Assembly: GCA_964344765.1 (NCBI GenBank)
Contig: CAYFOM010000011.1
Span: 42,951 to 106,950, forward strand
Direction of reading: 5' to 3'
Source of the DNA: an uncultured Planctomycetales bacterium
Lineage (GTDB): Bacteria > Planctomycetota > UBA1135
Length of the DNA: 64,000 nucleotides
Below the pieces are notes generated by a model. It was not told the origin of the DNA. It saw only the letters and a program-made list of their open reading frames with translations, and did not search any database. Positions 11,974 to 53,467 of this stretch are shown piece by piece. A program made the position numbers and the translations under genes. The first letter of the stretch is position 1; every line of letters begins with the position of its first letter.

Positions 11974-12004
11974 CCCACCCACCTGCTTCGTTGTCGACGG
12001 CGAG

Positions 12005-23499: not shown

Positions 23500-23502
23500 A
23501 GC

Positions 23503-24540: not shown

Positions 24541-24552
24541 CGCTGGGCTTCC

Positions 24553-26534: not shown

Positions 26535-26537
26535 GGT

Positions 26538-32444: not shown

Positions 32445-32719
32445 TAGAGTTCGGGAAGCTGTTCGACTTCGGCCAACTCTTTCATGTATTCCAATCGGGC
32501 GCGCAGCGCGTCGGGGGAGGTGAGCAGCCGGTACAAGTGCTGATAATGAGCTTTGTGTTGCTCATATTCCAGATAGTTCCGGTTGTATTGCTCGGTCCGA
32601 CTTCGGGAAGCCAGTGCCTCGTTGCGCAAACCCAGCCCGGCCAGTAGTTCACACAAGGTCAACAGGACCAGGCCAGCGATGCGTCCGGTCACTTCGCTTC
32701 CTCCGCACGCTGAATGCAA
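32444..32719 (-). CDS. Small bitopic membrane/coiled-coil protein in the FtsL position
   Basis: 91 aa with one TM helix (IAGLVLLTLCELLAGLGL) followed by a helical segment. It lies between rsmH and ftsI, and its TAA shares one base with the ftsI ATG (TAATG). The call is by position and architecture only. Confidence 0.4.
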   Translation of the reverse strand: MHSACGGSEVTGRIAGLVLLTLCELLAGLGLRNEALASRSRTEQYNRNYLEYEQHKAHYQHLYRLLTSPDALRARLEYMKELAEVEQLPEL

Positions 32720-34109: not shown

Positions 34110-34132
34110 GGAGACTTTTCAGGGAGTGACTG

Positions 34133-34184
34133 ATCCACCACGATCCGCCATTTTCCCCCACAAACCTATTCTGTCGCCCCACCA
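34133..34184 (-). promoter_or_regulatory. Candidate MraZ operator: four direct TGG(T/C)GG / TGTGGG repeats upstream of mraZ
   Basis: The minus strand reads TGGTGGGG (34184-34177), TGTGGGGG (34162-34155), TGGCGG (34150-34145) and TGGTGGAT (34140-34133). Spacings are 22, 12 and 10 nt. The last repeat ends 23 nt before the mraZ ATG. Confidence 0.45.
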
Positions 34185-34288
34185 GAAATGCGCAACTAAA
34201 AAACGGCCCTTTTGGGCAGTTTTTCCGAATTTCTCTGGAATTCTCCGCTGGGGCCCGATTCAGCCAATCAGCGAAACCCGACGGCGAC

Positions 34289-38530: not shown

Positions 38531-39241
38531 ATGGCCCAGGACCCCGGCAACCCGTCGCTGCTCGCTTCCGCGCGCGAGTATCTGCTGGAAGAATTGGCGC
38601 AATTAGGTGTCGAGCACCTGGCCCCGGTCCCGCAGCTCGCTTCGGCGTCGCCGACCCCCACGCCATGCGAGCCGCTTGAGCAAATCGCCGCCGAAATCTC
38701 TCAGTGCCGGCAGTGCGAACTTTGCAACACTCGCACCAACACGGTGCCCGGCGACGGTTCCCAGGAAGCACGAGTCGTCTTTGTCGGCGAAGCCCCGGGC
38801 GCGGAAGAAGATCTCCAGGGCCTGCCGTTTGTCGGCCCTGCCGGTCAGCTTTTGACCAAAATCATTGAAGCCGGCATGGGGCTGAAACGGGAGCAGGTTT
38901 ACATCTGCAACATTTTGAAATGTCGGCCGCCGGGCAACCGCGATCCATTGCCCGCAGAAAAATCCGCCTGCACGCCATTCCTGCAACGGCAACTGAAATC
39001 CCTGCAACCGCAGCTAATTATCTGCCTAGGTCGACATGCGGCCAACTACTTACTTGGCAGCGACGAATCCATGTCCAGAATGCGCGGCAAGTTGCACGAA
39101 TCGGCAATGGGCATTCCCATCCTCGCGACTTATCATCCGGCATATCTTCTGCGCACTCCTGCTGCTAAAGTAGATTGCTGGCAAGACATTCAAATCGCCA
39201 TGAAGCATTTAGGTCTCACGCGTCCGGGAGCAGCCCATTGA
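38531..39241 (+). CDS. Uracil-DNA glycosylase, family 4
   Basis: CRQCELC Fe-S motif, [23 protein letters not shown] motif A, and HPAYLLR at the C-terminus. Confidence 0.85.
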
Positions 39242-40203
39242 ACCGAGCCTTAGGTCTGCACTTTCTTGGCGACCAATACGCCTATGCCCTGATTGAAAAA
39301 TCCGCCGACGCTCCGGTACAAGTGCTCGCTGCCGGCAATGTTGAGCAAGAAAAATTAGCCGGCCTATATGACCGCCTTGGCGGCGAACTCAACCTGCCTT
39401 GGTGCTTAGCCGCCGAAGACGACGGCTCCATGTTGTCGCACCTGCCACCTGATTGGCCCCTGCGCCCAATCGAACCCGAGGTCCTGGTGCACCCGGCGAC
39501 GTCGGCCGCTTTGTGGGATTGGGAGCACGGCCGCATTGATGAAAACGACCTCTATCTATGGTTGCGCTCCGGATTCCTGTTATGGGCGCGCGGCATTCCC
39601 GGCCAAGGTCGCTCCGGCTGCTCGGCAAGGCGCGGACCGCTCATTAGTAATTTACGGCCGATTCTCAATCGCTTTCAACGCAATCGCTGCCCCTCCGTGG
39701 TCAGCATGGAGGGCGATGCTCCGGGCGGTGATTACCTCCTGCAAGCCCTCGCAGATGCCGGCCACAGCGTTCGCGAAATCAATCGACCACCGCATGAAAT
39801 GGGCGCCGACCCTGCAGCTGCCGGCGCCGCGTTGGCTGCCATTTCACCCGACTTCCAAGCGGTCTACGTTCCCGAAAAACGGCAGCGTTCGCCCCATTGG
39901 CGTACTGCAATGGGACTCGGCGCGCTGGTGGCAACGCTGACGGCATTGGCATTCACCTTGGGGCAAGAAAGCAATTTGCGCAGCTGGAAGCGCAGCCTGG
40001 AACCGACCGTTCAAAGCGGAGACTCCTCGGCGCCTACTGCCGCAGCGCCTCCTATTGAGTTGGTTCGACTTATTGAACGTCGCACCCAATTCGTGCAAGC
40101 GCTACGCAACCTTTCGGATTCGCCGCCGAACACTTTGGCCGAAGTGGAAATCGTCGCCGCACCGGATGGCTCAACCGTGCGGGATCGAGTGAGGACCAAA
40201 TGA
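39238..40203 (+). CDS. Bitopic GspL / fused PilM-PilN-like inner-membrane protein (cytoplasmic domain + TM + short periplasmic helical domain)
   Basis: About 220-aa cytoplasmic part beginning LGLHFLGDQYAYALIE (like the PilM/GspL first strand). TM helix WRTAMGLGALVATLTALAFTLG. Periplasmic PIELVRLIERRTQFVQALRNL. A TTG start at 39238 overlaps the udg TGA (TTGA). The call is by architecture and context, not by detected homology. Confidence 0.4.
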   Translation: MNRALGLHFLGDQYAYALIEKSADAPVQVLAAGNVEQEKLAGLYDRLGGELNLPWCLAAEDDGSMLSHLPPDWPLRPIEPEVLVHPATSAALWDWEHGRIDENDLYLWLRSGFLLWARGIPGQGRSGCSARRGPLISNLRPILNRFQRNRCPSVVSMEGDAPGGDYLLQALADAGHSVREINRPPHEMGADPAAAGAALAAISPDFQAVYVPEKRQRSPHWRTAMGLGALVATLTALAFTLGQESNLRSWKRSLEPTVQSGDSSAPTAAAPPIELVRLIERRTQFVQALRNLSDSPPNTLAEVEIVAAPDGSTVRDRVRTK

Positions 40204-40790
40204 TGGAACGTTTGTTCACTCACCGCGGCTACTTATTCACCTGCCTCATCCTGGCGCTCCTGATGGCGTGGCTTTGGCAATCGCGGAGTCAGCGTTTTCT
40301 TGCCATGCAGCCCTCGCTGATGGATTTGGAGGAAAGCGAAGTTCCGGCGAGCTTCGCATGGTTGCAACAAGGCTTGGGCAAGTTGGCCACGCCAGCGCCT
40401 GCTATACGCCAAGAAGCGTTTGAGGGCGCAGAAACCATCGGCTGGTCGCACTTAGATTCGACCTCACCCTTAGCGGTAGCCGCGCAAACGGAATTGGCTC
40501 GCTGGGCAAGTCCCGGACGATTGCCGCTGCAAACGCAAACCGTCAGCGTCTCCGAAGTCGAGGGCTTCCCGGCGATGGAGCTCGGAATCGAAGCCAGTGG
40601 CCCGGAGCTGGAAGTCCTCGCTTGGCTGGATCATTTGCTCCACGCCCCAACGGGCGTTGGCTACTTGACCGACCCGGCCGTGGTTCACCTGAGCACGCAA
40701 GACGAAGAATTGCACTTGCGCCTAGCGGTTCGCGTCTGGCCGGCAGTGGCCTTCCTGCGCCAAGGGCTCAATATGGAGGTGCAGGGATGA
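40200..40790 (+). CDS. PilO/GspM-like bitopic membrane protein
   Basis: N-terminal TM helix (YLFTCLILALLMAWLW), a helical segment, then a ~100-aa periplasmic domain. ATGA overlap with the preceding gene. Call by architecture and context. Confidence 0.4.
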   Translation: MMERLFTHRGYLFTCLILALLMAWLWQSRSQRFLAMQPSLMDLEESEVPASFAWLQQGLGKLATPAPAIRQEAFEGAETIGWSHLDSTSPLAVAAQTELARWASPGRLPLQTQTVSVSEVEGFPAMELGIEASGPELEVLAWLDHLLHAPTGVGYLTDPAVVHLSTQDEELHLRLAVRVWPAVAFLRQGLNMEVQG

Positions 40791-41764
40791 AAGACGCCCT
40801 CCTATTCCTGACCTTGCTCGTCACAGCCGCATGCTTGGGCTTGCTCGCCTTCTTGCCGCACCCTGCTGTGGCCGCGCGCAGCCAAAGTCCGCTGCTACTG
40901 GCCGGTGCCGACGGAATCGAGATCGCCGCCGACGTGCCCGCCGAAACTCGCAGCGCTGCATTGACTTCGGCACTCGCAGCCGCGCACCCCGTCGACGGCA
41001 TAGGGCTGAGTAGTGTTTTTGGCTCGGGCAGCAACGGCGACGAGGAAAGCACGCCTGCACTTGGCGAATTTCCGGCGCTGTACCGGCCACGTGTATTGCG
41101 CGCCAACATCCAAGAGGGCGGCGTACGCCTGAGCTGGCTGCCCCACCCGCGCAATCCGATTGACGACTTGGAATACCGCATCGAGCGCTGGAATAGCGCC
41201 GGCTCGCTCGATGCTTCAGTGGTGCTCACCAACACCGAGTACCTGGACCGCCTGGACTGCGAGGGAATTACCTTCCACTACAGGGTTTACGCCGAATTGG
41301 AACGGGCCGCACCGGGCTTGTCCAACGCCGCGGCCCTACGGCGCAGCTCACCGGCCGCTACTACTAAGGTCGCGCTGGCCAAAAAATCGCAGTGGGTTGC
41401 CGACAAATTGATCGACAATGCGACGCTGGTTTTACGTCTGCAGCGCCCCGACCGCCCCGAATTAGGCCCGTTCGAGGCCTCTCCGGGAGAAAAAATTGCA
41501 GATTCCGGCTGGATCCTGGAATCCTTCACGAAGGGCGAAACCGAAGTGCCTACCATGACTAGAATCCCGCGCTTCGATGAGCTGGGACGGCGTGTCATTG
41601 TCGATGACCGTCCTGCCTATCGTGGCCGCGAGGGCACCGAAACACGGCAATTCGTGACCGTTCACCTTCTGGACCCTTGCGGTTCGCCTTGGCGACAAAA
41701 TCTTCTGCTTCCCCCCCCTGTGCGCCGCCACAATGGTGCGCTTCCCCCCGCAGACTCTCACTGA
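40787..41764 (+). CDS. Membrane-anchored periplasmic protein with a fibronectin type III-like domain (PilP position)
   Basis: The start was chosen at MKDALLFLTLLVTAACLGLLAFL (ATGA overlap with the upstream stop). The ORF-track start at 40622 overlaps the previous gene. The FN3-like segment is PRVLRANIQEGGVRLSWLPHPRNPIDDLEYRIERWNS...FHYRVYAEL. Confidence 0.5.
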   Translation: MKDALLFLTLLVTAACLGLLAFLPHPAVAARSQSPLLLAGADGIEIAADVPAETRSAALTSALAAAHPVDGIGLSSVFGSGSNGDEESTPALGEFPALYRPRVLRANIQEGGVRLSWLPHPRNPIDDLEYRIERWNSAGSLDASVVLTNTEYLDRLDCEGITFHYRVYAELERAAPGLSNAAALRRSSPAATTKVALAKKSQWVADKLIDNATLVLRLQRPDRPELGPFEASPGEKIADSGWILESFTKGETEVPTMTRIPRFDELGRRVIVDDRPAYRGREGTETRQFVTVHLLDPCGSPWRQNLLLPPPVRRHNGALPPADSH

Positions 41765-41919
41765 TCACCCCCGTCAGAACCGCGTTCGTCGATCTTACGG
41801 CTTTACTCGCACAAGGCTCTACGGCACAATCCCTAGCCGCAGCTTCCTGAACCCCCAAACCCTGCTGCGCCGGGCCGCCCTCGAATCGCTGCCTAAACGC
41901 ACCTTAGACCCCTCTCTAC

Positions 41920-44517
41920 ATGCGCATTCCCAAGAAGTCCCTGCTTCTTCTGCCCGCTCTGCTCGCCGCCTCCTGCGCGGACCTGGCTGAGAACGAGGTA
42001 GCGAACTCTTCCCCCATGGTCTCCACGGGCGACGCCGTCGACCTGGATTCCAGCGTCACCTATCAAGAGCCTGGCCAGGAGCCGGGTTCGATTGATCCGC
42101 GTGGTGCTTATGGGGACATTGAAGCTCGCAAGCAGAAGCGCCGCCTCCTAGCGAAGAATTACATCTCGCTGGCTGACGGCTTCTTTAACCGTGGCGATTA
42201 CGAAGGTGCTGCCCAGCACTACGCCGACGCCTTCCAGTTGGACCCCGAAAGCCGCGAAGCCCGCGATGGCCTGCGTCGTTCGCAAGCCGCCATGGGTGGT
42301 AACGCCTGGTCGTGGCAAGACGCCGAAGGAATGGTGGATCAGCAAGCCCTGCGCTGGGCTGCTACTCGTCTGAAGGTAGAGGGCCTGATGAACGATGGCG
42401 ACCGCGCCATGGCTCGTGGTGACTTTGCCGACGCCGAGTCTGCTTACACCACCGCGATGCAAACTCTGCGCATCTCGCCGAACGTCGCCAACGACAGCTT
42501 GAACACTTCACTGGTTCAGGCGCGGATGGACGCCGCCAAGGATGCTCGCTACACCCAAATGGAAGCTAAGCGCGCTGCCGAAACCGCAGCCGCCGAAGCC
42601 GACGCCGCTGCTCAGGAAGCCGCCAACCGCGAGTACTTCGAAAACCGCATCCGTACGCTGTTCGGCGAAGCCAACGCTTCGTTCCAGAACGGCTTCTACG
42701 ACAAGGCTGTGGCCACTTTGGACAAGGTGCTGAAGCTGGACCCGAGCAACGCCGATGCGCAAATGCTGCGTGACGTCGCCAACGAAGCTTGGCACGTGGA
42801 GCGCCAGCAGAAAACGGCAACTGCATTCCGCGAAGAGTGGAAGGAAGCCTTCCAGGAAATGCAGCACTTGGCCGTTCCGCCGAAGAGCACCATTGAGTTC
42901 GACGAGGACTACTGGACCAGCGTTGTTGACATTCGCAAGCCGATTGACGAAATCACCGACGAGACCGAAGCCGATCCCGAGCGCGACGCTATCCAGCGCA
43001 TGCTCGACACCACCCAGATTGAAGCTCGCTTCGATCAGCCGGTGGAAGAGGTGGTCGACAACTTGGCTGCTTACACCAACGTAAACTTCGTCGTCTCCCG
43101 CGCGGTGCGCGAAGACATGGACGAAGACGCCAAGCAGGTCAACTTCGCGTTCAACAAGCCGATGCCGGTTTCGCGCATCATGCGCTTGATTGAAGCGCAA
43201 AGTGACAACCAGTTGAAGTTCGTCATCATGAACGGTGCGGTCAACGTGCTGTCCGCTGAAGAGTCGAACTCGGGTCACGTGCTGCGTCAGTACGAAGTGC
43301 GCTCGATCATTCGTCCGTTGCCGGACTTCGATCTGCCGGAAATCACCATCGCCGGTTCGGGCGGTGTGGGATTCGAGCCGGAGCCGATCAACGAAGATCG
43401 TGAAGCCAACCTGCTGACCGAAGACACTCTGCTGACCATCCTCGGCGTCGATGACTGGGAAGAGCCGGCTTACGCTCAGATCCAGGAAGGCACGCTGATT
43501 GTTTACCACCAGCCGGAAAACCAGCAGAACATCCGCGACATCCTTGCTGACCTGCGCAAGTCCACCAACACCTCGGTAGAGATTTCGGTGCGTTTCATGA
43601 AGGTGGAAGACAGCTTCTTGCAGGACATCGGCATTGACTTCCGCGGCTTGGGCAACAACTCGACCCAGGGCATTGATGGTGCCGGCACCAACGTCGCCTT
43701 CGATGACTTCGGTGATGACCCGTCCTCCACCAACATCGGTTCCGACGGTTCCGCTGGTCTGTACTTCTCCGAGGCCGACGACAACATGAACTTGTTGGGT
43801 CGCACCGAGAACTTGTACGACATGGGCTTGGGTCGCACCTCCGACTCCACCGATGACGGTGTCGACGCCTCCGGTGGATTGTCCGCTCAGTGGACTCTGC
43901 TGGACGATGCCGAAGTGCAGATGATTCTGCGCGCCGTCGAGAAGTCGAAGCGTTCGGAAGTGGTCACCGAGCCGAGCTTGATGGTTTACAACGCCACCCG
44001 CGCAACGCTGACCGTTACCAACCAGGTGTCCTACGTCTCGGACTTCGATGTCGAGATTGCGCAGGCTGCCTCGATTGCGGCACCGATCGTTCGCGTGGTC
44101 ATGGACGGCGTCTTCCTCGACGTCACCCCGGTGGTCAGCTCCGACCGTCGTTCGGTTTCCATCGACCTGCGCCCGACGGTTGCAACTCTGCGTCGCCCGA
44201 TCCGGACCTTCCAGACTTCGCTGGGTTCCGGTTCTCCGGTCACCATCATGTTGCCGGAAATCGAGCTGCAGAAGATTCGCACCCGCACCACCGTGCCGGA
44301 CGGCGGCACTGTGTTGGTCGGTGGCTTCAAGATCATTGAGCAGAATGACATGGACTCGGGTGTGCCGTTCCTGAACCGCATTCCGATCCTCAGCTTCTTC
44401 TTCCAGCGTCAAGGAACTTACGAGTCCTACCGTCGCTTGCTGATTCTGCTGACGGCGCGCATCATGATTCCTGATGAGCACGCGCCGGGTCAAGACGCTG
44501 TCGCCAGCGCCAACTAA
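41920..44517 (+). CDS. Secretin-family outer-membrane channel with an N-terminal lipobox and TPR region (secretin 1)
   Basis: LLPALLAASC lipobox-like signal. At least three TPR-like repeats (NRGDYEGAAQHYADAFQLDPES...; QNGFYDKAVATLDKVLKLDPSN). N-domain. C-terminal secretin core VPDGGTVLVGGF...DSGVPFLNRIPILSFFF. Confidence 0.85.
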   Translation: MRIPKKSLLLLPALLAASCADLAENEVANSSPMVSTGDAVDLDSSVTYQEPGQEPGSIDPRGAYGDIEARKQKRRLLAKNYISLADGFFNRGDYEGAAQHYADAFQLDPESREARDGLRRSQAAMGGNAWSWQDAEGMVDQQALRWAATRLKVEGLMNDGDRAMARGDFADAESAYTTAMQTLRISPNVANDSLNTSLVQARMDAAKDARYTQMEAKRAAETAAAEADAAAQEAANREYFENRIRTLFGEANASFQNGFYDKAVATLDKVLKLDPSNADAQMLRDVANEAWHVERQQKTATAFREEWKEAFQEMQHLAVPPKSTIEFDEDYWTSVVDIRKPIDEITDETEADPERDAIQRMLDTTQIEARFDQPVEEVVDNLAAYTNVNFVVSRAVREDMDEDAKQVNFAFNKPMPVSRIMRLIEAQSDNQLKFVIMNGAVNVLSAEESNSGHVLRQYEVRSIIRPLPDFDLPEITIAGSGGVGFEPEPINEDREANLLTEDTLLTILGVDDWEEPAYAQIQEGTLIVYHQPENQQNIRDILADLRKSTNTSVEISVRFMKVEDSFLQDIGIDFRGLGNNSTQGIDGAGTNVAFDDFGDDPSSTNIGSDGSAGLYFSEADDNMNLLGRTENLYDMGLGRTSDSTDDGVDASGGLSAQWTLLDDAEVQMILRAVEKSKRSEVVTEPSLMVYNATRATLTVTNQVSYVSDFDVEIAQAASIAAPIVRVVMDGVFLDVTPVVSSDRRSVSIDLRPTVATLRRPIRTFQTSLGSGSPVTIMLPEIELQKIRTRTTVPDGGTVLVGGFKIIEQNDMDSGVPFLNRIPILSFFFQRQGTYESYRRLLILLTARIMIPDEHAPGQDAVASAN

Positions 44518-44527
44518 ACCAGCACGA

Positions 44528-44567
44528 GGCCGGGAGCAGGAGCGCACGATGTGCGTCGCTCCCGGCC
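44528..44567 (+). other. GC-rich hairpin just after secretin 1 (no U-tract)
   Basis: GGCCGGGAGC (44528-37) pairs with GCTCCCGGCC (44558-67). There is an inner GCAC-GAT-GTGC stem. It is followed by the CCTTCCCCCCCC motif. Confidence 0.35.
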
Positions 44568-44609
44568 TTCGCCGTTACCTTCCCCCCCCTCCGCACTAAA
44601 TCCTGACCC

Positions 44610-47456
44610 ATGCTTTTCTCGGTCGGAATCCTTGCCTCCGCTGCCCTGTTCGCACCGCAACAAGGTGAAGAAGGAAGCGCTGCCATTCAGAAAGACGCTG
44701 CTTTTGCGCTGGCGTTAACTAAGCAGCTAGGCTTCAGCAGCTTCTCCGAAATGGTGATTGACGACGCGATGGACCGCGCGTCAAGCGCCGAAGATCGCAG
44801 TTCGCTGCTGCTCGCCCGTTGCCAGATTCTGGAAACGGTGGCGGTACGCCCCGGCACTCCCACCGAGGAAGTAGCTGGTTGGCGCTCCGCAGCAGACGCT
44901 TACATCGAATTCATCGCCTCCAAGCCTGCCCAAGCACAGGGCGTCACGGCGCGCCTGCAGCTGGGCTTCGTCGGCTTTCAATACGGCGAGAAGGTCTACA
45001 GCATGTTCGAGAGCACCACTCCGGACAGCGCAACCCGTCAGACCATGCTGGAAGATGCGGAGAAGACCTTCCAGGAATCCCTGACCGCGATTAACTGGAC
45101 CATCGATTGGTGGCGCAGCTTGGATGACCCGGATCACAAAGAGGGTGCCAAGTACACCGTCTTCTTCCCGGCTTCGTTCTACCGCGCGCTGACCTACCAC
45201 TACTGGGGCATGCTCTACCCCGCCGGTTCAGTCGAGCGTGAAGACAACATCGCGCGCGCGCTGGAGTTCCTTGAGGACTTCGCCATTACCGCCGGTGAGA
45301 ACACTCGCGCCGGTTTGCTGGCTTACAAGCACATGGGCGATGGCTTTGTTGCTTTAGGCGATTACGAAATGTCGGATGAACTGTACGACTTCGTCATCGT
45401 CGAAGGTGTGCCTGATGGCGCCGATAAGGTCATGACCCCAGGCGAAATCAGGGGTCGCCGCAACGCTCAGCAAGATGCCTGGCTAGGCCGCATGCTGATG
45501 TTTGAATCGGCCGGCCGTGCTGGTGAAATCCCGGCCCTGGGTGCAACCTTCCAACAGTGGGTTGCTGATAACCGCGTCGCGCTGAACGACTCCGGCTATC
45601 GCGTGCAAATGGCCGTGGCCAAAAACATGATCGCCGACGGCAACTTCGGCGACGCCATCACCTTGCTGCAAGCTGTTGCCGCTGCCAACGAAGGCAAGCT
45701 GCTGCGCCTCGAAGCGGATGCTTTGCTGGGTGATGCTATTGCCGCTGCCCCTCCGGGAGCCGCAATTAACTTGGACGTACTGTTCCAAGCCGGACAAGGC
45801 GCTTACTACTCGAAGAACTACCAAGAGGCGTCGAAAAACCTGCGCCTGCTGATTTCGCGCCTCGACGCCAGTTCGCAAGCGCAAGCCGTCGGCGGTAAGG
45901 CTTACTACTTCCTCGGCCGCGCCCTGGAAGATGACGAGCTGACCCTGGAAGCTGCCGTGGCCTACAGCAAGGGCTATGAAATGTTCTCCGATGATGAGGA
46001 GAACGCCGAAAAGCTGGCTTCGCGCTGGCACAAGTTGGCCGAGCGCTTCCGCAATGCGGATCCGACCGACAACTACCTCGACAACTTCTACAACAACGCG
46101 CTGGATGCGCTGAAGGAGTCGTCGGGAGGCGGTGCCCCCCACGTGGTCATGCTGCGTTCGGCGGATACCGACTACAACCTGGCCAAGGCTGCGTCGCGCA
46201 ACGCTCGCGGCAAGCCGGCTAGCTCGCAAGAAGCTAAGGACGCAATCAAGGCGTTTGACAAAGCCATTCTTTCGTACCGCCGCGTCGATCGCGGAACCGA
46301 GAGTTTCGAGAAAGCCACCGTGCAAATCGGCCTGTGCGAATTCAACAAGTTCGCTTGGCAGCCGCTGGCGATGGATCGCGCGATTGAGGCGTTTGAGGAT
46401 TACCTGAACGTCTACACCAAGGATCAGAACTTCTTGCCGAACACGCCTAAGGGCAAAAAGTATCGCAAAGACTCGATTGCCAAAGCCGACTTCTACCTCG
46501 GCCGCTCCTACCGCAACATGGCCGCCGCCGGCGACCTGACCGCATGGGACAAGATGCTCGAGCACTTCGATGGTTTCGAGCAGCGCCAGGAGGGTCAGGA
46601 TGACCAGATTGGTGCCGCCAAGACTTACCGCACCGAGGCTTACTTGGCCACCGGCCGTGAAGACGAAGCAGTCGGCCAATACGAGAGCCTGGTCGCTTCC
46701 GGCGCGCGCTCGACGTGGCTGAACTCCTGCTCCTTCAAGTTGTACGTTTACTTCAAGGGCAAGATCGATGCCGAAGAAGACATGGAGGCGAAGCTGCCGT
46801 GGCAGCGCAAGGCGGTGAAGTACTTGCAGGTGGCCAACTCGCAAGACCCGCGACCGAAGTGGCAAAACTTGCTGACCGAAGGCCGTCTGTACTTGGCCAT
46901 CGGTGACATTGCTACCGGCACCAAGGTGCTTGAGAACACTTTGCAGCGCTTCGGCCCGGCCGACGGTTTTGATGGTAGCTCGCGTTTCTTCGCGGAAACC
47001 GACCTAATTCAGGCTTACCTCGAGCAGGGCAACACCGGCACCGCGGTGCCGCTGATGGACAAGCTGCTGAAAGAGCGTCCCAAGAACCTGCGCGTCATGT
47101 CGATGGCCATCCGCATTAAGACCGGCTTCCCGGTGGTGCGCGAAGGTCGCGTCGTCAAGGTGCCCGGTGAAGACACCATCGAGGCTTACCAAACCGCTGA
47201 GAAGCTGATTGGCGACTTGCTGCAGCTGGCCGAGCGTAAAGCACTGGACGCCGACAAGAGTAAGTTTGAGCTCAAGGAATGGTGGGAAGCCAAGCTTCAA
47301 CACGTTTACTTGGTCTACAAGTGGAGCCTCAAGGACTCCACCAAGGATCACAAGAAGCTGCTGAGATCCATTGAGCAGCTCGCACCTGACTTCGGTGAAT
47401 CGGTCACCGGGCCGGAAACCAAGCGCATCTTCACGTGGCTCAAGACCCAAGGTTAA
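44610..47456 (+). CDS. Large secreted all-TPR/helical-repeat protein (948 aa)
   Basis: N-terminal signal-like MLFSVGILASAALFAPQQ. Numerous TPR-like A-x-x-x-Y/F...G-x-x-x-x-A repeats throughout. No enzymatic motif seen. Confidence 0.7.
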   Translation: MLFSVGILASAALFAPQQGEEGSAAIQKDAAFALALTKQLGFSSFSEMVIDDAMDRASSAEDRSSLLLARCQILETVAVRPGTPTEEVAGWRSAADAYIEFIASKPAQAQGVTARLQLGFVGFQYGEKVYSMFESTTPDSATRQTMLEDAEKTFQESLTAINWTIDWWRSLDDPDHKEGAKYTVFFPASFYRALTYHYWGMLYPAGSVEREDNIARALEFLEDFAITAGENTRAGLLAYKHMGDGFVALGDYEMSDELYDFVIVEGVPDGADKVMTPGEIRGRRNAQQDAWLGRMLMFESAGRAGEIPALGATFQQWVADNRVALNDSGYRVQMAVAKNMIADGNFGDAITLLQAVAAANEGKLLRLEADALLGDAIAAAPPGAAINLDVLFQAGQGAYYSKNYQEASKNLRLLISRLDASSQAQAVGGKAYYFLGRALEDDELTLEAAVAYSKGYEMFSDDEENAEKLASRWHKLAERFRNADPTDNYLDNFYNNALDALKESSGGGAPHVVMLRSADTDYNLAKAASRNARGKPASSQEAKDAIKAFDKAILSYRRVDRGTESFEKATVQIGLCEFNKFAWQPLAMDRAIEAFEDYLNVYTKDQNFLPNTPKGKKYRKDSIAKADFYLGRSYRNMAAAGDLTAWDKMLEHFDGFEQRQEGQDDQIGAAKTYRTEAYLATGREDEAVGQYESLVASGARSTWLNSCSFKLYVYFKGKIDAEEDMEAKLPWQRKAVKYLQVANSQDPRPKWQNLLTEGRLYLAIGDIATGTKVLENTLQRFGPADGFDGSSRFFAETDLIQAYLEQGNTGTAVPLMDKLLKERPKNLRVMSMAIRIKTGFPVVREGRVVKVPGEDTIEAYQTAEKLIGDLLQLAERKALDADKSKFELKEWWEAKLQHVYLVYKWSLKDSTKDHKKLLRSIEQLAPDFGESVTGPETKRIFTWLKTQG

Positions 47457-47466
47457 GGAGAAAGCA

Positions 47467-48552
47467 ATGATTCCCCTACTCAGCATTCTTCTGGCACTGC
47501 CGCTGGCCGCCCAAGGCCGCGTGGTCAAGCTGGATGGCTCCAGCATTCCCGGCAACATCACTGCCGCGACGTTGGAGAAGGTCGAAATCTCCGCTGCAGG
47601 CGGAGCCACCGAAATCCCTGCCGGCGACGTTTTGCGCCTGCAGTTTGGCAGTGATCCGGCGATCATCACTCAAGCCAAGGGTTACTTGGCCAAGTTGGAG
47701 TTCCAAAACGCCATCAACCTATTGAGTGAGGCAGAAGGCCAAAGCGATCCGGCTTGGTTGCCACCGTACGCCAAGCTGCTCAAGGCCGAGGCGCTGTTGT
47801 CGTGGTCGGCATTTGACGCCGGTCGCGCATCGGCCGCTCAATCGGCCTTCGATGAGTGGCTCGCCACCTACCCCGACCACTTTTGGCAAGCACGCGCCCG
47901 CATGGGCCAGGCCAAAGCCATGGGTCGCGCCGGCAAGGTGCAAGATGCCGGCAAATTGATGCAAGATCTTGCTAGCTTCAGCTTCGACAAGAACTTGGGC
48001 AAGCATGTCGAGTTCGGCGCCCGCCTCACTCGCTGCGAAATCTACCTCGACGGCAAGGAGCCGACCCTGGCCAAGCAGCGCCTGGAAGGCAGCAACGGCT
48101 TGGTGGCCACACTGAAGGCCGCGTCGACGGCACCCGACGCCCCGACCGCCCTGCGCACCATGATGCACGGCTACTGGGTACGCGCCCAAATCCTGCTCGG
48201 CGATTCGATCGAGCAGGCAGATGGCCTGGATAAGGCTAAAAGCCACTGGGAGCGCGTCTTGCGCACGGAAAAGCAGCTTTCGGATGACGCTCGCGCCACC
48301 GGCAAGATCGTCATTGCGCGTGCTTCGCGCGACGCCGGCAAGCTGCGGGAAGCGCAATTTGCTTTGGCAGAAATTGCCGCAACCCTGAACTGCGGGCCGG
48401 ATACTATGGCCCGAGCCTTGTTTACGCTCGGCGAAGTTTGCCAGGAATTGGGTGACAAGCCCACCCCTGGAACCACCTACTTCCGCCGCATCGTAGAACG
48501 CTATCCTGCGTCGGCTTGGGCGGCCAAAGCCCGTAAAAAACTAGGCAACTAG
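47467..48552 (+). CDS. Secreted TPR protein (361 aa) with a small N-terminal beta domain
   Basis: The start was chosen at MIPLLSILLALPLAAQG (ATG at 47467), preceded by AAGGAG (47455-60) overlapping the upstream TAA. TPR repeats (e.g. GKLREAQFALAEIAATL, YFRRIVERYPASAWAAKARKKL). Confidence 0.7.
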   Translation: MIPLLSILLALPLAAQGRVVKLDGSSIPGNITAATLEKVEISAAGGATEIPAGDVLRLQFGSDPAIITQAKGYLAKLEFQNAINLLSEAEGQSDPAWLPPYAKLLKAEALLSWSAFDAGRASAAQSAFDEWLATYPDHFWQARARMGQAKAMGRAGKVQDAGKLMQDLASFSFDKNLGKHVEFGARLTRCEIYLDGKEPTLAKQRLEGSNGLVATLKAASTAPDAPTALRTMMHGYWVRAQILLGDSIEQADGLDKAKSHWERVLRTEKQLSDDARATGKIVIARASRDAGKLREAQFALAEIAATLNCGPDTMARALFTLGEVCQELGDKPTPGTTYFRRIVERYPASAWAAKARKKLGN

Positions 48553-48687
48553 GACCTGCCCCCGCAGGTTCCCTGAAAACCCCTACCCACCTCAAACCAG
48601 GATCGCGCTAGACTTGCCTCCCGCGAATCCAGGGCCGGCCCCCGTCGGCTCTACCTGAACCTTCCCCCCACGAACAAGTAACCCTCG

Positions 48688-49419
48688 ATGTCTCGTCTTC
48701 GACTCATCTTCACTGCTTCAGCTGGTTTCCTGCTGACCTCCACCTTTGCCCTCGCCCAAGAAGGGGCCGCAGCAGCCGATGCTGCAGCCGATTCCGGCGG
48801 CGGCGTCGACATCATGGAGGCGATCTCCGCAGCCGGTACGATCGGTTATCTGATCATCGGTATGTCCATGGTCGCTGGTGCTCTGATCATCGAGCACTTC
48901 ACCAGCATCAAGCGCGACAAGCTTGCTCCGCCGGAGACCATCGACGAGATCGAAGAACTGCTTGCTGAAGGCAACTACCAGGAAGCCCTGGACCTGTGCG
49001 AAGCCGAGCCTTGCTTCTTCACCAACGTCTGCGCTTCCGGTATCCGCAAGATCGGTCACCCGTTCGAAGCTCTGGAGAAGTCCGTTGAAGAGATGGAAGA
49101 CGAGGAGTCGGTCAAGCTTCAGCAGAAGATTGGCTGGTTGTCCTTGATCGCAGGTATCGGCCCGATGATGGGTCTGTTCGGAACTGTGACCGGCATGGTG
49201 GGTGCGTTTGCCACGATTGCAGACGCTGCAGGTGGTGTAGAGCCGTCTGACTTTGCAGGTGACATCTCGATGGCGCTGATGACCACCGTGTTGGGTCTGA
49301 CTGTGGCTATCCCGACCACCGCTTTCTACGCTTTCTTCAAGAACAAGGTGACTCTGACTTCGCTCGAGATCGGCGCCATCATTGAAGAAATGTTTGAGCG
49401 TTTCCGTCCCGCCGAATAA
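48688..49419 (+). CDS. exbB: MotA/TolQ/ExbB family proton-channel protein
   Basis: The three-TM layout and LSLIAGIGPMMGLFGTVTGMVGAF...MALMTTVLGLTVAIPTTAFYAFFKNKV are hallmark ExbB/TolQ motifs. Confidence 0.85.
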   Translation: MSRLRLIFTASAGFLLTSTFALAQEGAAAADAAADSGGGVDIMEAISAAGTIGYLIIGMSMVAGALIIEHFTSIKRDKLAPPETIDEIEELLAEGNYQEALDLCEAEPCFFTNVCASGIRKIGHPFEALEKSVEEMEDEESVKLQQKIGWLSLIAGIGPMMGLFGTVTGMVGAFATIADAAGGVEPSDFAGDISMALMTTVLGLTVAIPTTAFYAFFKNKVTLTSLEIGAIIEEMFERFRPAE

Positions 49420-49422
49420 GTA

Positions 49423-49950
49423 ATGTCACAAAGAGGAAGACAGACATCGGAAGTCGAGGTCGATATGACCCCGATGATCGACTTGACCTTTTTGTTGATC
49501 ATCTTCTTCATCATCGTGAACGACCTCACGCAGCAGGAGCTTGAAGACCTCAAGCTTCCTGTTGCCCAGAAAGCCGGTCACGACGATCCGCCTCCAGGCC
49601 GCCCCATTCTCAACGTCATGGAGGATGGAACGATCATCTGGAAGAAACAGCAGATCTACTGGCCCGGCATTCAGCCGCAAGGAACGGACCCGATCCGCAA
49701 GAATCGTCCGGACCACTACTGGCTGCTGGCGGAAACGATGAAGTTGAATTTCTTGCCCTGGATGAAGTACGAAAAGGATGAAGCGCTCGGCTTGGATTTG
49801 CCGGACGAACCCATCCTGATCCGTGCGGACCGGAACACCCCGTTCCGCTACATCCAGCGCATCATGGAAGTGTGCTCGCGCAAGGACATTCTGATCTGGA
49901 AGGTTCAGTTGGCCGCGTCCGAGCCGGTTACCGCCACCGAAGGACAGTAA
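49423..49950 (+). CDS. exbD: ExbD/TolR family protein 1
   Basis: VDMTPMIDLTFLLIIFFII (conserved Asp in the TM helix) and a periplasmic ILIRADRNTPFRYIQRIMEV domain. 3-nt gap after exbB. Confidence 0.8.
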   Translation: MSQRGRQTSEVEVDMTPMIDLTFLLIIFFIIVNDLTQQELEDLKLPVAQKAGHDDPPPGRPILNVMEDGTIIWKKQQIYWPGIQPQGTDPIRKNRPDHYWLLAETMKLNFLPWMKYEKDEALGLDLPDEPILIRADRNTPFRYIQRIMEVCSRKDILIWKVQLAASEPVTATEGQ

Positions 49951-49962
49951 TAGGAGGAAGAG

Positions 49963-50502
49963 ATGACCAGAAGAATGAAAAATGAATTCGAAGAGGTCAA
50001 GCCGGACATGACGCCAATGATTGACGTCACCTTCCTGTTGCTGATTTTCTTCATCGTGACGCTGAAGTTCAAAACGTTGGAAGGTCGCTTGGACTCCAAC
50101 CTGCCGAAGGACATGGGTACCAGCAATGCGCCCACAGATCCGGTGGAAAAGGTGGACATCGTCATTCGCGTGGGTAACCCAGGCACCAAACAGCCTGACC
50201 CGGCAACGCGCACCAAGTCGAAGCCTCAGGGCCGCTTGGAGCACTTCCGCAACCGCATTTTGAAGGTTTCAGTGGGTACTGCAGTCTTCCAGGTTCGCAA
50301 CGACGTCCACAACTCGGACGGCCTGCTGCAAGACCTCGATAAGCTGCGCCGCGCACTGAAACCCTTCGATAAGGAGGAGACTCCGGTGACCCTCGATGCT
50401 CGTGAAGGCATCATTTACGAGGACGTCATCGGCATTTTGGACCTAGTCATCGACCAAGGCTTCCAAAAGGTGTCGTTCTCCGGTTCGCAAGAACAAGGTT
50501 AA
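49963..50502 (+). CDS. exbD: ExbD/TolR family protein 2
   Basis: PDMTPMIDVTFLLLIFFIV and C-terminal LDAREGIIYEDVIGILDLV. AGGAGG lies 5 nt upstream of the ATG. Confidence 0.8.
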   Translation: MTRRMKNEFEEVKPDMTPMIDVTFLLLIFFIVTLKFKTLEGRLDSNLPKDMGTSNAPTDPVEKVDIVIRVGNPGTKQPDPATRTKSKPQGRLEHFRNRILKVSVGTAVFQVRNDVHNSDGLLQDLDKLRRALKPFDKEETPVTLDAREGIIYEDVIGILDLVIDQGFQKVSFSGSQEQG

Positions 50503-50509
50503 ATCTTTT

Positions 50510-50537
50510 CAGGGCCTCGACTTCGGTCGGGGCCCTG
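50510..50537 (+). terminator. 12-bp hairpin with a UUCG tetraloop after exbD2 (weak terminator, attenuator or mRNA stabiliser)
   Basis: CAGGGCCTCGAC-TTCG-GTCGGGGCCCTG, with one G-U pair. It is followed only by CCTTTCCC, not a real U-tract. Confidence 0.4.
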
Positions 50538-50753
50538 GCCTTTCCCTCACCGGCAGCCAGCAACGGCATTCGCCACCTGCCCAAACCGGTTCCCCCCTCA
50601 AAACATGCCGACCCTCGCGCTCCCTCCCAGTCAAGCGCTATCGGCAAAAAAAGAAGCCCCTTCCGCTGCGTTCAACGTGGCGAACGCGGAGCGGCGCTGC
50701 TAAATTCCTGAACCTGATTTCGGTTCCTCGAGCCGTCGGATACCCCTGCGTCC

Positions 50754-53408
50754 ATGAACAAGCACCTGATCCCGGTTGCCAGCCTGGCCCTGCCCTTGGT
50801 CTTTTTGACCGCGGGCTGTGGCTCAAGCGTCCCCCAAGAAGACCTCGACCAGACCACCACGGCAGATACCGCGGTGGACAACAACGATGCCTTCGGCCCC
50901 AGCAACGCCAGCGCTCCTACTGAGAGCGTTGCCCAGGAGCCTGGCCAAGGCGACCTGGTGCAAACTGCTGTAAAGGCGAAAAACCTGAAGGAGCAGAAGA
51001 TTGCGCTGCTGATTGATGAGCGCCTCTCCAACGCTCGTTCGGCTTACGCCGACGGTCGTTTTGAGGACGCCGCCAACCAGTTGCAGCTCGCTCTGCAACT
51101 CGACCCCACCCACCGCGAGACTCGTTCGTTGTTGACCGACGTGCAAATCGCCATGGGTACGTCGACCAAGGCGGAAGCTGGCTACGAAGCTCAAACCATC
51201 CTCAAGCGCAAGCTTGAGATGCTGAAGGCGGAAGCCCACTCCAACGCCGAGAAGGGCGCCCAACAGCTGGCTGAAGGCGACTACCAAAGCGCCATCACCA
51301 GCTTGATGCTGGCCCGCGCCACCATCGACGGCACGCCTTACAACATTGACTGGGGAACCCTCGGTGCCGAAGTCGGTGCCAACTTGGAGAAGGCTTTGGC
51401 CGATCAAGAGCTGGCGATGGCCTCTCAACTCCAGGAAGAGCGTCAGTCCACTTTCCGCTCACTACAGGAAGAGGAAGAAGCTCGTCAGGCTAAGACGGAA
51501 GCTCGTCAGGCAATGATGCTGCAGGAAGCCATCGAGGCTTACTCGCTGGAAGACTTCGAGCGCACCATCACCTTGACTGAAGAGATTCTGCGCGTCGATC
51601 CGCTCGACGTACGCGCCGCTGAGTTGCGCGACGTCGCAGTGAAGACTCGCCACGAGTTGGTTGCCGAAAGCTTCGTCACCGACCGCCAAGAGCGCTTCCG
51701 CCTGTGGTTGGAAGAGATCGAAGAAAGCCGCGTGCTTCAGAACGATCTTTACTCCGCTCCGGACCAGGAATACTGGAACGAGATTTCCGAAAAGCGTGCT
51801 TCCTACGGTAACTTCGCTTCCGGCGAATCCGCCGATCCGGAGAACGTCGCCATCGCCGTCGCCATGGGTGAAACCCGCATTCCGGGCTTGGCCTTGGATG
51901 GCGTCACTGATCTGCGCGAGGTCATCGACCAGTTGTCCGCCAACGCCGACAACATCCCCTTCTTGGTCAACAACGCTGCTGCCGACGCCGTCGATAGCGA
52001 AGGCATTGAGTTCTCGATGACCCTGGGCTCCTCCATCACCGTGTTGAACGCGTTGGAGCTGATCACTCAGGCTGCCGGTGAAGAGGTGGTTTACACCATC
52101 AACAACGGCGCGGTACACATCACCACTCGTGAGAACGCTTTCGGTCAGGTTGTGACCAAGCCGCACGACATTCAGGACCTGACCATTCAGTTCACTGACT
52201 TTGCTGGTCCGCGGATCGACACCATCTGGTTGCCGGATACCGAAGCCAACGAAGAAGAAGAAGGTTCGATCTACGGTGGCCCGTTCGGTGAGCCGCGTAC
52301 CTTGGTCAACCCGGACGAAATTGCCGACACCGTGATGGCAACCGTCGCCCCGGGCACCTGGGATGACAACACTGCCGAGTACGCCAACGGTTATTTGATC
52401 GTCAAGCACACCCCCGCCGTGCAGCAGCAGGTGGATGACTTCCTCCAGGACCTGCGTCGCTATAACGCTTCGATGGTCTCGATTGAAGCTCGCTTCCTGA
52501 CGATCCAGAAGGACTTCATGAAAGAGATTGGTTTGGACTTCCGCGGCTTGGGTGGTTTCCCGGACGCGAACGACCTGATCGACCTCGACGACGTGATCTC
52601 CGGTGGCGATGACAATTCGTCGGCCGGTCTGGATAACAACGGTAACGGCCTGGGCGACACCAACCCGTCGGCTGGTTTCTTCTTCGACGAAGCTGGTCGC
52701 TGGTCCACTCGCGCCCGTACCGAGAACATGCTCGGCAACTACGGCACCGAGCGCATGTCGGCCGCTGGTGGCTTGACCATGCAGTTCGCCTTCCTGGACG
52801 ATGCCCAGACCTCGCTGATTCTGCGCGCTGTTGAGAAGAACAACCGCTCGCAGGAACTGAACAGCTCCAACATCATGGCGCAGAACACGCAGCGCGCCTT
52901 CATGACGGTGCTAAACCAGGTCACTTACATTCAGGACATGGACGTGGAAGTCGCGCAGGCGGCCTCCGTTGCTGACCCGGTCATCGGCGTAGTTTCGGAC
53001 GGCATCGTCATCGACGTGCGCCCGATCATCTCCCACGACCGCAAGTACATCACGCTGGAGCTGCAGCCGACGGTTGCCACCCTGCTGCGTCCGATTCCGG
53101 AATTCACCTCTTCGCTGTCTGGTCTGACCACCCCGGTCACCCTGCAGCTGCCGGAACTGTTCATCGCTTCTGCGAAGACCAACGCCATCGTGCCGGACGG
53201 CGGTACCGTCGTCATCGCTGGTCTGCGCAAGCTGCTGAACATCGAGCAACGCGCCGAGATCCCCTTCTTGGCCAAGATCCCGATCCTGTCGGTCCTCTTC
53301 AAGACCGAAGGTGAGGCTTACGAGAACGAAGACATCATCGTTCTGATCCGCGCTCAGATTCTGGATACTTCGGAACTCAAAGACAACTTGGACGCACGTC
53401 GCAACTAA
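50754..53408 (+). CDS. Secretin-family outer-membrane channel with an N-terminal lipobox and TPR region (secretin 2, paralog of secretin 1)
   Basis: LVFLTAGC lipobox. TPR-like repeats (ADGRFEDAANQLQLALQLDPTH; LEDFERTITLTEEILRVDPLD). C-terminal secretin core VPDGGTVVIAGL...EIPFLAKIPILSVLF. It is collinear with secretin 1 (RFxxxxxxFxxxIGxDFRGLG, LRAVEK, RPTVATL). Confidence 0.85.
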   Translation: MNKHLIPVASLALPLVFLTAGCGSSVPQEDLDQTTTADTAVDNNDAFGPSNASAPTESVAQEPGQGDLVQTAVKAKNLKEQKIALLIDERLSNARSAYADGRFEDAANQLQLALQLDPTHRETRSLLTDVQIAMGTSTKAEAGYEAQTILKRKLEMLKAEAHSNAEKGAQQLAEGDYQSAITSLMLARATIDGTPYNIDWGTLGAEVGANLEKALADQELAMASQLQEERQSTFRSLQEEEEARQAKTEARQAMMLQEAIEAYSLEDFERTITLTEEILRVDPLDVRAAELRDVAVKTRHELVAESFVTDRQERFRLWLEEIEESRVLQNDLYSAPDQEYWNEISEKRASYGNFASGESADPENVAIAVAMGETRIPGLALDGVTDLREVIDQLSANADNIPFLVNNAAADAVDSEGIEFSMTLGSSITVLNALELITQAAGEEVVYTINNGAVHITTRENAFGQVVTKPHDIQDLTIQFTDFAGPRIDTIWLPDTEANEEEEGSIYGGPFGEPRTLVNPDEIADTVMATVAPGTWDDNTAEYANGYLIVKHTPAVQQQVDDFLQDLRRYNASMVSIEARFLTIQKDFMKEIGLDFRGLGGFPDANDLIDLDDVISGGDDNSSAGLDNNGNGLGDTNPSAGFFFDEAGRWSTRARTENMLGNYGTERMSAAGGLTMQFAFLDDAQTSLILRAVEKNNRSQELNSSNIMAQNTQRAFMTVLNQVTYIQDMDVEVAQAASVADPVIGVVSDGIVIDVRPIISHDRKYITLELQPTVATLLRPIPEFTSSLSGLTTPVTLQLPELFIASAKTNAIVPDGGTVVIAGLRKLLNIEQRAEIPFLAKIPILSVLFKTEGEAYENEDIIVLIRAQILDTSELKDNLDARRN

Positions 53409-53430
53409 GTCTTCGGTCATCCGAAACCAA

Positions 53431-53467
53431 GGACCTTCCCCCCTCGGGAAGGTCCTTTTCTTTTTTG
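53431..53467 (+). terminator. Rho-independent terminator of the secretin cluster
   Basis: 10-bp stem GGACCTTCCC / GGGAAGGTCC, 5-nt loop, then TTTTCTTTTTTT. It lies 23 nt after the secretin 2 stop. Confidence 0.8.

Follow-up and report, generated by a model that had tools for sequence, protein, structure and literature searches.

Akkermansia muciniphila encodes a secretin with tetratricopeptide repeats (TPRs) that is its most abundant outer-membrane protein, and the cluster in which it lies also specifies the PilM/FtsA-like Amuc_1101 and three envelope proteins (PMC4960237, PMC5332112). In Pseudomonas aeruginosa, production and localization of type IVa pili (T4aP) require PocAB-TonB3, which are homologues of ExbB, ExbD and TonB. 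A contact of TonB3 with the N0 domain of the secretin PilQ was proposed, since N0 resembles the signaling domain of TonB-dependent receptors (PMC5285504). TonB2 of Acinetobacter baumannii contributes to transformation that depends on type IV pili (PMC8811193). A motor of the MotAB/TolQR/ExbBD superfamily, driven by the proton-motive force (pmf), works at or beyond the outer membrane in the AglRQS-Glt/Nfs system of Myxococcus, via periplasm-spanning partners and with TPR proteins (PMC3169522). Here we describe a cluster of ten genes (g1 to g10) in which an ExbB-ExbD-ExbD stator is encoded between two secretins. It lies in a stretch of 64,000 nucleotides, referred to below as the window, of contig CAYFOM010000011.1 from an uncultured Planctomycetales bacterium (assembly GCA_964344765.1).

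In the prevailing view, a secretin is no more than an exit, passive or gated, for a machine that runs on a cytoplasmic ATPase. Stators of the Ton/Tol type are seen as working via TonB or TolA, with beta-barrel receptors or Pal as their targets. The GldLM/PorLM pair of the type IX secretion system (T9SS) is likewise a pmf-driven inner-membrane motor that acts across the periplasm. Full-text literature searches retrieved no paper describing a gene cluster that joins secretins to ExbBD.

A Stator Fixed Between Two Secretins

All ten open reading frames (ORFs) called by a first-pass annotation, which had been made from the letters of the window, were found on the + strand between 39238 and 53408 (Table 1). 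Seven of the products are identical, residue for residue, to called proteins in a public collection (P0001, P0026, P0041, P0074, P0076, P0077, and P0082). A scan of one genome per species gave 22 loci, labelled Planctomycetota, Planctomycetales or Phycisphaerales save for one labelled "Myxococcota" and one from an unclassified metagenome-assembled genome (MAG). Every locus of this set with a long enough contig has the order secretin 1-TPR-TPR-ExbB-ExbD1-ExbD2-secretin 2, and the order persists where identity has dropped as low as 23% (g5), 32% (secretins) or 50% (ExbB). Metagenomes were scanned with an ExbD2 profile, which yielded more than 445 relatives and about 26 retained loci with sufficient flank. 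The same core occurs in about 23 of these 26, down to an ExbD2 identity of 31%. The secretin genes therefore adjoin exbB-exbD-exbD across a deep clade, and the concern that they might be neighbors in the source genome alone can be set aside.

Dozens of independent contigs share this gene order, which puts it beyond chance and rules out an artefact of assembly or annotation. The conserved core consists of two anciently duplicated TPR-lipoprotein secretins, two secreted TPR proteins, ExbB and two different ExbDs. In the sub-lineage of the window, this core is preceded by g1-g3, apparently what is left, in degenerate form, of an alignment module like that of type IV pili. The linkage of the stator to two secretins of the type found in the Planctomycetes-Verrucomicrobia-Chlamydiae (PVC) group is conserved and occurs widely in metagenomes, and the literature searched contains no description of it. 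We give an even chance to the reading that an uncultured clade of Planctomycetota carries here a lineage-wide cluster of envelope genes, in which a Tol/Ton-type stator is genetically hard-wired to PVC-type secretins and acts as a motor on the pores.

The variants of the cluster are informative about which parts belong together. In locus L093 (5488-13423), a TPR-secretin, ExbB, two ExbDs and a second TPR-secretin follow one another with no separate TPR genes. The link between secretins and stator thus outlasts changes in the other parts. The L093 module is preceded by genes for two paralogous transmembrane (TM) proteins of no known family. A further place of change is the slot between ExbD2 and secretin 2, which contains no gene in the window (50503-50753) and is variable in relatives. 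Many of them have there a gene for a cytoplasmic-type decarboxylase dependent on pyridoxal phosphate (PLP) (in L001 at 15911-17455), L026 has a sulfatase-TPR protein (9257-11263), and L056 (10684-11178), L069, L098, and L099 have a third ExbD. A tblastn search of the gap in the window found no remnant of the PLP decarboxylase.

Table 1. Genes and transcript-level elements of the secretin-stator cluster, with positions in the window (aa, amino acids; AF2, AlphaFold2; pLDDT, predicted local distance difference test; MFE, minimum free energy; E-values are from Pfam).
Feature	Position	Strand	Description	Evidence
UDG	38531-39241	+	Family-4 uracil-DNA glycosylase gene	Stop overlaps g1 start (TTGA); UDG E 4.7e-39
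g1	39238-40203	+	Bitopic protein, 321 aa	AF2 model pLDDT 80 (15 homologues)
g2	40200-40790	+	196 aa, N-terminal TM helix and periplasmic domain	ATGA overlaps on both sides
g3	40787-41764	+	325 aa, N-terminal TM helix, periplasmic domains	AF2 model pLDDT 78
g4, secretin 1	41920-44517	+	Lipoprotein, 865 aa	Secretin PF00263 E 6e-26, and TPR
Hairpin after secretin 1	44522-44572	+	GC-rich; followed by a C-rich, not U-rich, tract	MFE -35.5 kcal/mol, z -3.05
g5	44610-47456	+	Secreted all-helical TPR-like protein, 948 aa	Weak TPR_14/19/16 matches
g6	47467-48552	+	Secreted TPR protein with signal peptide, 361 aa	Weak TPR match
Hairpins after g6	48553-48570, 48600-48630, 48631-48652	+	No U-tract	Region 48553-48652: MFE -35.8 kcal/mol, z -3.4
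g7, ExbB	48688-49419	+	ExbB/TolQ-type proton-channel subunit, 243 aa, cleavable signal peptide	MotA_ExbB E 1.6e-25
g8, ExbD1	49423-49950	+	175 aa	ExbD E 4.7e-16
g9, ExbD2	49963-50502	+	179 aa, TM Asp conserved	ExbD E 1.1e-15
Hairpin right after ExbD2 stop	50510-50537	+	12 bp, UUCG loop, no U-tract	MFE -30.4 kcal/mol, z -3.5
Promoter-like element	50678-50706	+	TGGCGA-17 nt-TAAATT	Conserved non-coding block; motif unique in window
g10, secretin 2	50754-53408	+	Lipoprotein, 884 aa, architecture as secretin 1	Secretin E 9e-22, and TPR
Intrinsic terminator	53429-53467	+	Hairpin 53429-53457, 12-bp stem, 7 G-C pairs, T-run	MFE -29 kcal/mol, z -4.0

The ExbB-ExbD-ExbD Stator

The three stator genes are closely spaced, and the gaps of 3 nt and 12 nt noted earlier are correct. 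Their products pass the Pfam cut-offs for MotA_ExbB and ExbD, and reach none of the NCBIfam equivalog cut-offs for ExbB, ExbD, TolQ or TolR. The top NCBIfam match of ExbB is TolQ (E 3e-18), and the best matches of the two ExbDs fall in the TolR/TolQ group, in each case under the cut-off. Across the clade, ExbB is 50-92% identical, with TM2 and TM3 conserved at 75-91%. The Asp of the TM segment is invariant in both ExbDs; in ExbD1 ("MTPMID") it is kept in all 19 orthologues. ExbD1 and ExbD2 can be aligned over the TM segment only, and a membrane-proximal block of ExbD2 is 90% conserved. From this pattern of conservation, the stator is evidently under purifying selection.

Secretins and Secreted TPR Proteins

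Both secretins score well above the PF00263 threshold of 27.5 bits (91.5 bits for g4 and 77.9 bits for g10), as do the secretins of L026, L093, and L102. The two were proposed as clear paralogs, and they do align over their full length with 31% identity (BLASTP E 1e-110). In secretin 1, a TPR region (residues ~70-290) is followed by N0/STN-like and N1-like domains and by a C-terminal secretin domain (672-849). This architecture is PVC-type, that is, Amuc_1098-like. Residues 125-710 of g4 align to the NCBIfam family Amuc_1098_fam (NF042912) with E 1.4e-32. With 112.7 bits for g4 and 60.5 bits for g10 against a cut-off of 750 bits, the two are not members of that family by its curated threshold. 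Among other NCBIfam models, the secretin domains are nearest to PilQ, MshL, and GspD, all far under the cut-offs; the GspD model TIGR02517, for instance, asks for 351 bits and gives 80.9 bits for g4 and 66.2 bits for g10. Among the solved structures of the Protein Data Bank (PDB), those nearest to the secretin domain of g4 are of PilQ (6ve2 and 6w6m). Pfam reports neither STN nor Secretin_N in g4 or g10 at E <= 0.01. STN, named for the "secretin and TonB N-terminus", was detected in two related secretins, at 28.7 bits against a cut-off of 28.4 in L102 and at 24.5 bits in secretin 2 of L093.

Secretin 1 and secretin 2 fall into two separate orthologous clades that are congruent with each other, which dates the duplication to before the origin of the lineage, with both paralogs retained throughout. 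The lipobox Cys of both proteins is kept in the orthologues, and the secretin domain is the best-conserved part of each, with 68-85% identity per 50-residue window.

The larger of the two secreted TPR proteins, g5, has a conserved signal peptide. Among 5.8e9 proteins we found only 25 homologues, all of them from Planctomycetota MAGs, and a profile search of the PDB with g5 returned generic TPR and pentatricopeptide (PPR) repeats only. In L023, the place of the g5 orthologue is taken by a pair of ORFs that overlap (10001-11380 and 11140-12999), owing to either a frameshift or an assembly error. For g6, a Shine-Dalgarno sequence overlapping the upstream stop had been claimed, and the sequence AAGGAG indeed overlaps the stop codon of g5. 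The C-terminal repeats of g6 resemble YbgF/CpoB (TIGR02795 tol_pal_ybgF, E 2.6e-10), at 40.9 bits against a cut-off of 90.1. The signal peptides of g5, g6, and g7 and of their orthologues (L001-L026) end in (A/L)(P/A)Q followed by acidic residues, and not in the usual A-x-A. This ending may serve as a signal for cleavage or sorting that is specific to the lineage. The bridging of the periplasm once proposed for the TPR proteins is conjecture.

An Apparently Decaying PilM-Like Module Upstream of the Core

The first three genes of the cluster were originally described as a GspL/PilMN-like protein, a PilO/GspM-like protein and a membrane-anchored FN3 protein, chained by TTGA and ATGA overlaps. 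The ATGA overlaps are present at g1/g2 and g2/g3; the TTGA lies outside the trio and joins the upstream uracil-DNA glycosylase (UDG) gene to g1. The labels given to g1 and g3 hold at the level of the fold and not at the level of the sequence family: none of g1, g2, and g3 has a match in Pfam, in NCBIfam or in profile searches against PDB sequences.

The model of g1 has a cytoplasmic actin-like (ASKHA) alpha/beta domain (residues ~1-210), a TM helix (~220-245), and then a short periplasmic helix and two strands. Its Foldseek matches in the PDB are ROK kinases, FtsA and PilM (5eox), with E-values of 3e-6 to 5e-4; the match to PilM (E 5e-4) ranks under those to sugar kinases. As modeled, the architecture resembles GspL or a fusion of PilM and PilN. 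The N-terminal phosphate-binding motif is degenerate (LGLHFLGD). A profile HMM search of 1.84e9 representative proteins returned only 23 relatives of g1, which form a closed family, and gave no sequence bridge to PilM. The second protein, g2, has orthologues in 10 loci and corresponds to PilN/PilO/GspM by position and topology only. In the model of g3, a low-confidence (disordered) linker leads to two tandem FN3-like beta-sandwich domains, for which Foldseek finds tandem FN3 pairs (E 3e-5).

A more complete version of this module is found in L025, which belongs to the most distant relatives. At the position of g1, this locus encodes a 514-aa protein starting GIDIGDGTLKAV, which matches PilM of Myxococcus xanthus (E 7e-9) and the Amuc_1101 family of PilM-like pilus complex proteins (E 4e-12, 46 bits against a cut-off of 650). 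In hhalign comparisons, the profiles of g1 and g2 had no significant match to the L025 proteins at the equivalent positions. Homology with the third gene of the L025 trio was detected for g3 (hhalign probability 93%), the sole member that links the two trios.

The trio is present in the sub-lineage of the window and absent in L016, L017, L022, L024, and at least 13 metagenome loci. In the loci without it, secretin 1 comes directly after the UDG gene. In L003, L012, and L013, all that is left of the trio is the segment of g1 with its TM helix and periplasmic region. Across the clade, the PilM-like gene ranges from intact (L025) through degenerate (the window) and truncated (L003) to missing (L016 and many others). 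From this patchy distribution, a PilM-type cytoplasmic adaptor is apparently decaying across the clade. The scaffold role once assigned to the "L/M-like" proteins is not borne out, as the trio lies outside the conserved core and its distribution, absent or truncated in many relatives, argues against it. Loss of the PilM-like cytoplasmic domain would fit a machine that has been uncoupled from cytoplasmic motors.

Transcript-Level Elements

The cluster was thought to end at one strong terminator, and the terminator downstream of secretin 2 is the sole canonical one in it. The single transcription unit that this implied is not upheld: a single transcript is not established, because stable hairpins occur inside the cluster and a conserved element lies upstream of g10. 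Strong GC-rich hairpins without a U-tract occupy every larger intergenic gap of the cluster. The stem 3' of secretin 1 is kept in L005 and L008. For the hairpin following ExbD2, none of 200 shuffled sequences was equally stable, and L005 keeps this structure although the sequence differs. Such hairpins may be non-canonical terminators, or elements of processing or stability. An Rfam scan of the whole window found no match.

The element before secretin 2 sits in a non-coding block (50610-50753) that is near-identical in L005, of which the proteins are only 85-92% identical, and recognizable in L006 and L007. The element at 50678-50706 is a putative promoter. Secretin 2 may thus be transcribed from a promoter of its own, or else its 5' untranslated region may be structured.

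Neighboring Genes

Since the UDG gene overlaps the start of g1, the co-directional chain begins one gene upstream of g1. The UDG product scores 212 bits with TIGR00758 (cut-off 125). Its gene is probably the first of the transcription unit and is probably not a functional part of the envelope machine. In most related loci it is kept as the upstream neighbor of the cluster. The homologues at this position in L003 (4808-5365), L012, L013, and L016 (6736-7245) are shorter, 26-28% identical, and have no UDG Pfam match on record. They may have decayed or changed function while retaining their place. Downstream of the cluster, a HAD hydrolase gene is a conserved neighbor, and its strand flips among relatives. 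The UDG and HAD genes are kept almost as faithfully as the core.

Further upstream, a dcw cell-division and cell-wall cluster apparently occupies 21000-34200 on the - strand, judged from ORF sizes. Its members verified by Pfam are mraZ (33630-34109) and mraW (32689-33633) only. Der/EngA (35392-36939) lies between the dcw and secretin clusters, and this neighborhood is retained in L003. About 7 kb downstream of the cluster are comEC (60489-62615) and, from ~62675 past the end of the window, a comM-like gene of the Mg-chelatase family. The sequence could be extended to the right by a 4.4-kb contig only, which contributed comM. An origin of the secretins from a prophage, or from the pIV secretin of a filamentous phage, was ruled out by the lack of phage genes, a uniform GC content of 0.58-0.61 and the kept chromosomal context.

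Secretion ATPases, Pilins and TonB

Regular-expression searches of the window and of 108 related loci (1.28 Mb) found no Walker A motif of the PilB/GspE/PilT type. They found only two prepilin-like N-termini, both in L098, ~9-10 kb downstream of ExbD2. Pfam scans of the ~40 larger ORFs of the window, which were not exhaustive, and of 10 kb beyond its left end revealed no genes for pili or secretion. TonB_C, TonB_dep_Rec and Plug were absent from the cluster proteins and from the flanking window ORFs scanned (again the ~40 larger ones, not exhaustively). Nor did Pfam and NCBIfam searches of the cluster proteins detect TolA, TolB or Pal. The earlier observation that the region lacks a GspE/PilB-type ATPase, TonB and a TonB-dependent receptor is therefore accurate for the Walker A motifs searched and the window ORFs scanned. 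The step from this absence in cis to a pmf stator that takes the place of an ATPase is not justified. The pilMNOPQ operons of T4aP are normally separate from pilB/C/D, pilT, and the pilin genes. Because such operons normally lack ATPase and pilin genes, the absence in cis says little about a replacement of the ATPase.

The cluster cannot be assigned to a type II secretion system (T2SS), as the GspD scores are low, g1-g3 match no T2SS family and no GspE-type Walker A is found in cis. Of a Ton system, ExbB and ExbD with the TM Asp are present, and the TonB transducer and a TonB-dependent receptor are missing from the window ORFs scanned. The only signal related to Tol-Pal is the sub-threshold CpoB/YbgF match in g6.

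How the Stator and Secretins May Work Together

The conserved linkage suggests that the motor acts on the pores. If so, an ExbB-ExbD1/ExbD2 complex in the inner membrane would turn pmf into mechanical work in the periplasm. This work would reach the secretin complexes either directly or via the TPR proteins and the secretins' own TPR/N0 regions, and would serve the assembly, positioning or gating of the secretins. The dependence would be like that of PilQ-based pili on PocAB-TonB3 in P. aeruginosa, here fixed in one cluster. Gene identities, the folds of g1 and g3, the paralogy of the secretins, the intact stator residues and the conserved linkage are shown by the sequences and models, whereas a physical link from stator to pore, a part for the TPR proteins in it and the use to which the work is put are inferred. 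The argument for coupling is that the stator always lies between two secretins, that the other core products are envelope proteins, and that the link survives both the loss of the TPR genes (L093) and the loss of the PilM-like trio.

Several observations weigh against coupling of the motor to the pores. In L102 (599-12411), the stator is retained with one secretin only: the locus encodes this secretin, proteins of 1391 aa and 442 aa, ExbB, and four ExbDs, with no second secretin. L075 and L083 carry an ExbD2-like gene without a secretin. The conserved block is shared by genes that are all unrelated, namely UDG upstream, HAD downstream and often the PLP decarboxylase. Because the clade preserves a neighborhood that includes genes without a plausible envelope role, adjacency by itself is weak evidence of function. 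The cluster encodes no TonB/TolA-like transducer, so the route from the stator to the secretins lacks an explanation. Finally, more than one transcription unit is suggested by the hairpins after g4, g6, and g9 and by the conserved promoter-like element ahead of secretin 2.

Some of these points favor two systems that lie side by side, which we regard as possible if somewhat unlikely. In such a case, g1-g4, perhaps with secretin 2, would be a PVC-type module like a type IV pilus or type II system, using PilB/PilC/PilT, a platform and pilins encoded elsewhere. The TPR proteins and ExbBD would be a separate Tol/Ton-like system, and the two would be neighbors through an old chromosomal arrangement. 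The order of a PilM-like protein, two bitopic proteins and a secretin mirrors pilMNOPQ and Akkermansia Amuc_1102-1098 (PMC5332112). The lack of ATPase and pilin genes here is little informative given the usual content of pilMNOPQ operons, the UDG, HAD, and PLP decarboxylase genes are equally conserved neighbors, and the internal hairpins and promoter-like element point toward separate transcripts. However, the stator always lies between the secretin paralogs, even where the flanks change, as with the flip of the HAD gene, the variable slot and the loss of TPR genes in L093. The PilM-like trio, which would be the connection to an ATPase, is lost in many lineages that retain the rest, and no TonB, TolA, TolB, Pal, or TonB-dependent receptor gene lies beside the stator in cis.

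Coupling of the stator to the secretins could also be taken further than we do. The core might be a self-sufficient, ATPase-independent, pmf-driven secretin transporter, in which the stator opens or drives the pores for uptake of macromolecules or for pilus-independent export. We consider this doubtful. If true, the core would be a functional analogue, built on secretins, of TonB-dependent transport and a candidate for the "selfish" uptake of polysaccharides into the periplasm by Planctomycetes, which is so far unexplained (PMC6474216). The progressive loss of the PilM-like adaptor would then mark a switch from ATP-driven to pmf-driven operation.

Less probable still is a Tol-Pal-like system of envelope integrity or division. 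It would have ExbB-ExbD-ExbD as TolQR, g6 (with g5) as periplasmic coordinator and the secretins as outer-membrane anchors that tether or constrict the outer membrane and transport no cargo. In its favor, the best NCBIfam matches of g7-g9 are TolQ/TolR and the C-terminus of g6 resembles YbgF/CpoB (E 2.6e-10), all of them under cut-offs. One g5 homologue is named "TolA-binding protein" in a source, and the dcw cell-division cluster (mraZ, mraW) is ~5 kb away. Against it, the cluster has no TolA, TolB or Pal homologue and all Tol matches are far under the curated cut-offs. Secretins are multimeric pores, and the secretin domain being the best-conserved part argues that the pore itself is needed.

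A competence machine, in which the secretins would admit DNA and the stator or TPR proteins would help to pull it toward the nearby ComEC channel, is very improbable. In its favor, comEC and comM are 7 kb downstream, and in competent Gram-negative bacteria DNA enters through secretins of the PilQ family. TonB2 contributes to transformation in A. baumannii (PMC8811193). Against it, five unrelated genes on mixed strands (including HAD, an ABC oligopeptide transporter, RidA, and a cytidylyltransferase) separate the cluster from comEC, and no comEA, pilins or ATPase are found in cis. Both comEC and comM are also common in non-competent bacteria.

With a stator fixed between secretin paralogs throughout a clade, the cluster is a concrete system for asking whether pmf acts on secretins. 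It also opens a genetic approach to the question why type IV pili depend on Poc/TonB3, and it is a candidate for the missing route of macromolecule uptake in Planctomycetes. Even if the stator only assists in assembling or positioning the secretins, this would be a new accessory principle in secretin biogenesis.

Comparison With Known Systems

The closest described relative of g1-g4 is the Amuc_1098-1102 cluster of Akkermansia. The secretins are alike in having a lipoprotein or signal sequence, a TPR (BamD-like) N-terminus and a C-terminal secretin domain (PMC4960237), and both clusters have a PilM-like gene and a few envelope proteins of no known family, followed by a secretin (PMC5332112). 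The Akkermansia cluster as described has five genes, and lacks the second secretin, the separate TPR proteins and the ExbB/ExbD that are present here. Moreover, g1 is a shortened, degenerate ASKHA protein without a sequence match to PilM, and g2 and g3 match no Amuc family.

With PilMNOPQ of T4aP, the cluster shares a gene order that begins with a protein of actin fold and passes through bitopic periplasmic proteins to a secretin. It differs in that PilM and PilN appear fused and degenerate in g1, that g3, unlike the lipoprotein PilP, is bitopic and has two FN3-like domains, and that there are two secretins, with TPRs instead of AMIN domains. A pmf stator is encoded inside the cluster, and the trio is dispensable in many relatives.

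The stator belongs to the same family as those of Ton and Tol-Pal, including the essential TM Asp of ExbD/TolR, and g6 has a CpoB-like TPR segment. Unlike those systems, the cluster has no TonB/TolA, TonB-dependent receptor, TolB or Pal in cis, and the outer-membrane partners beside the stator are secretins. AglRQS-Glt/Nfs and T9SS have other outer-membrane components (GltAB/Nfs and Sov/SprA) and no secretins, and no homology to the cluster was found outside the stator.

We know of no report of a poc or tonB3 gene in a pilMNOPQ operon. PocAB-TonB3 includes a TonB protein, whereas none is encoded here, and the Planctomycetota cluster has instead two ExbD paralogs and dedicated TPR proteins. PocAB-TonB3 and TonB2 are the nearest functional precedent for a Ton-type motor that serves a secretin machine.

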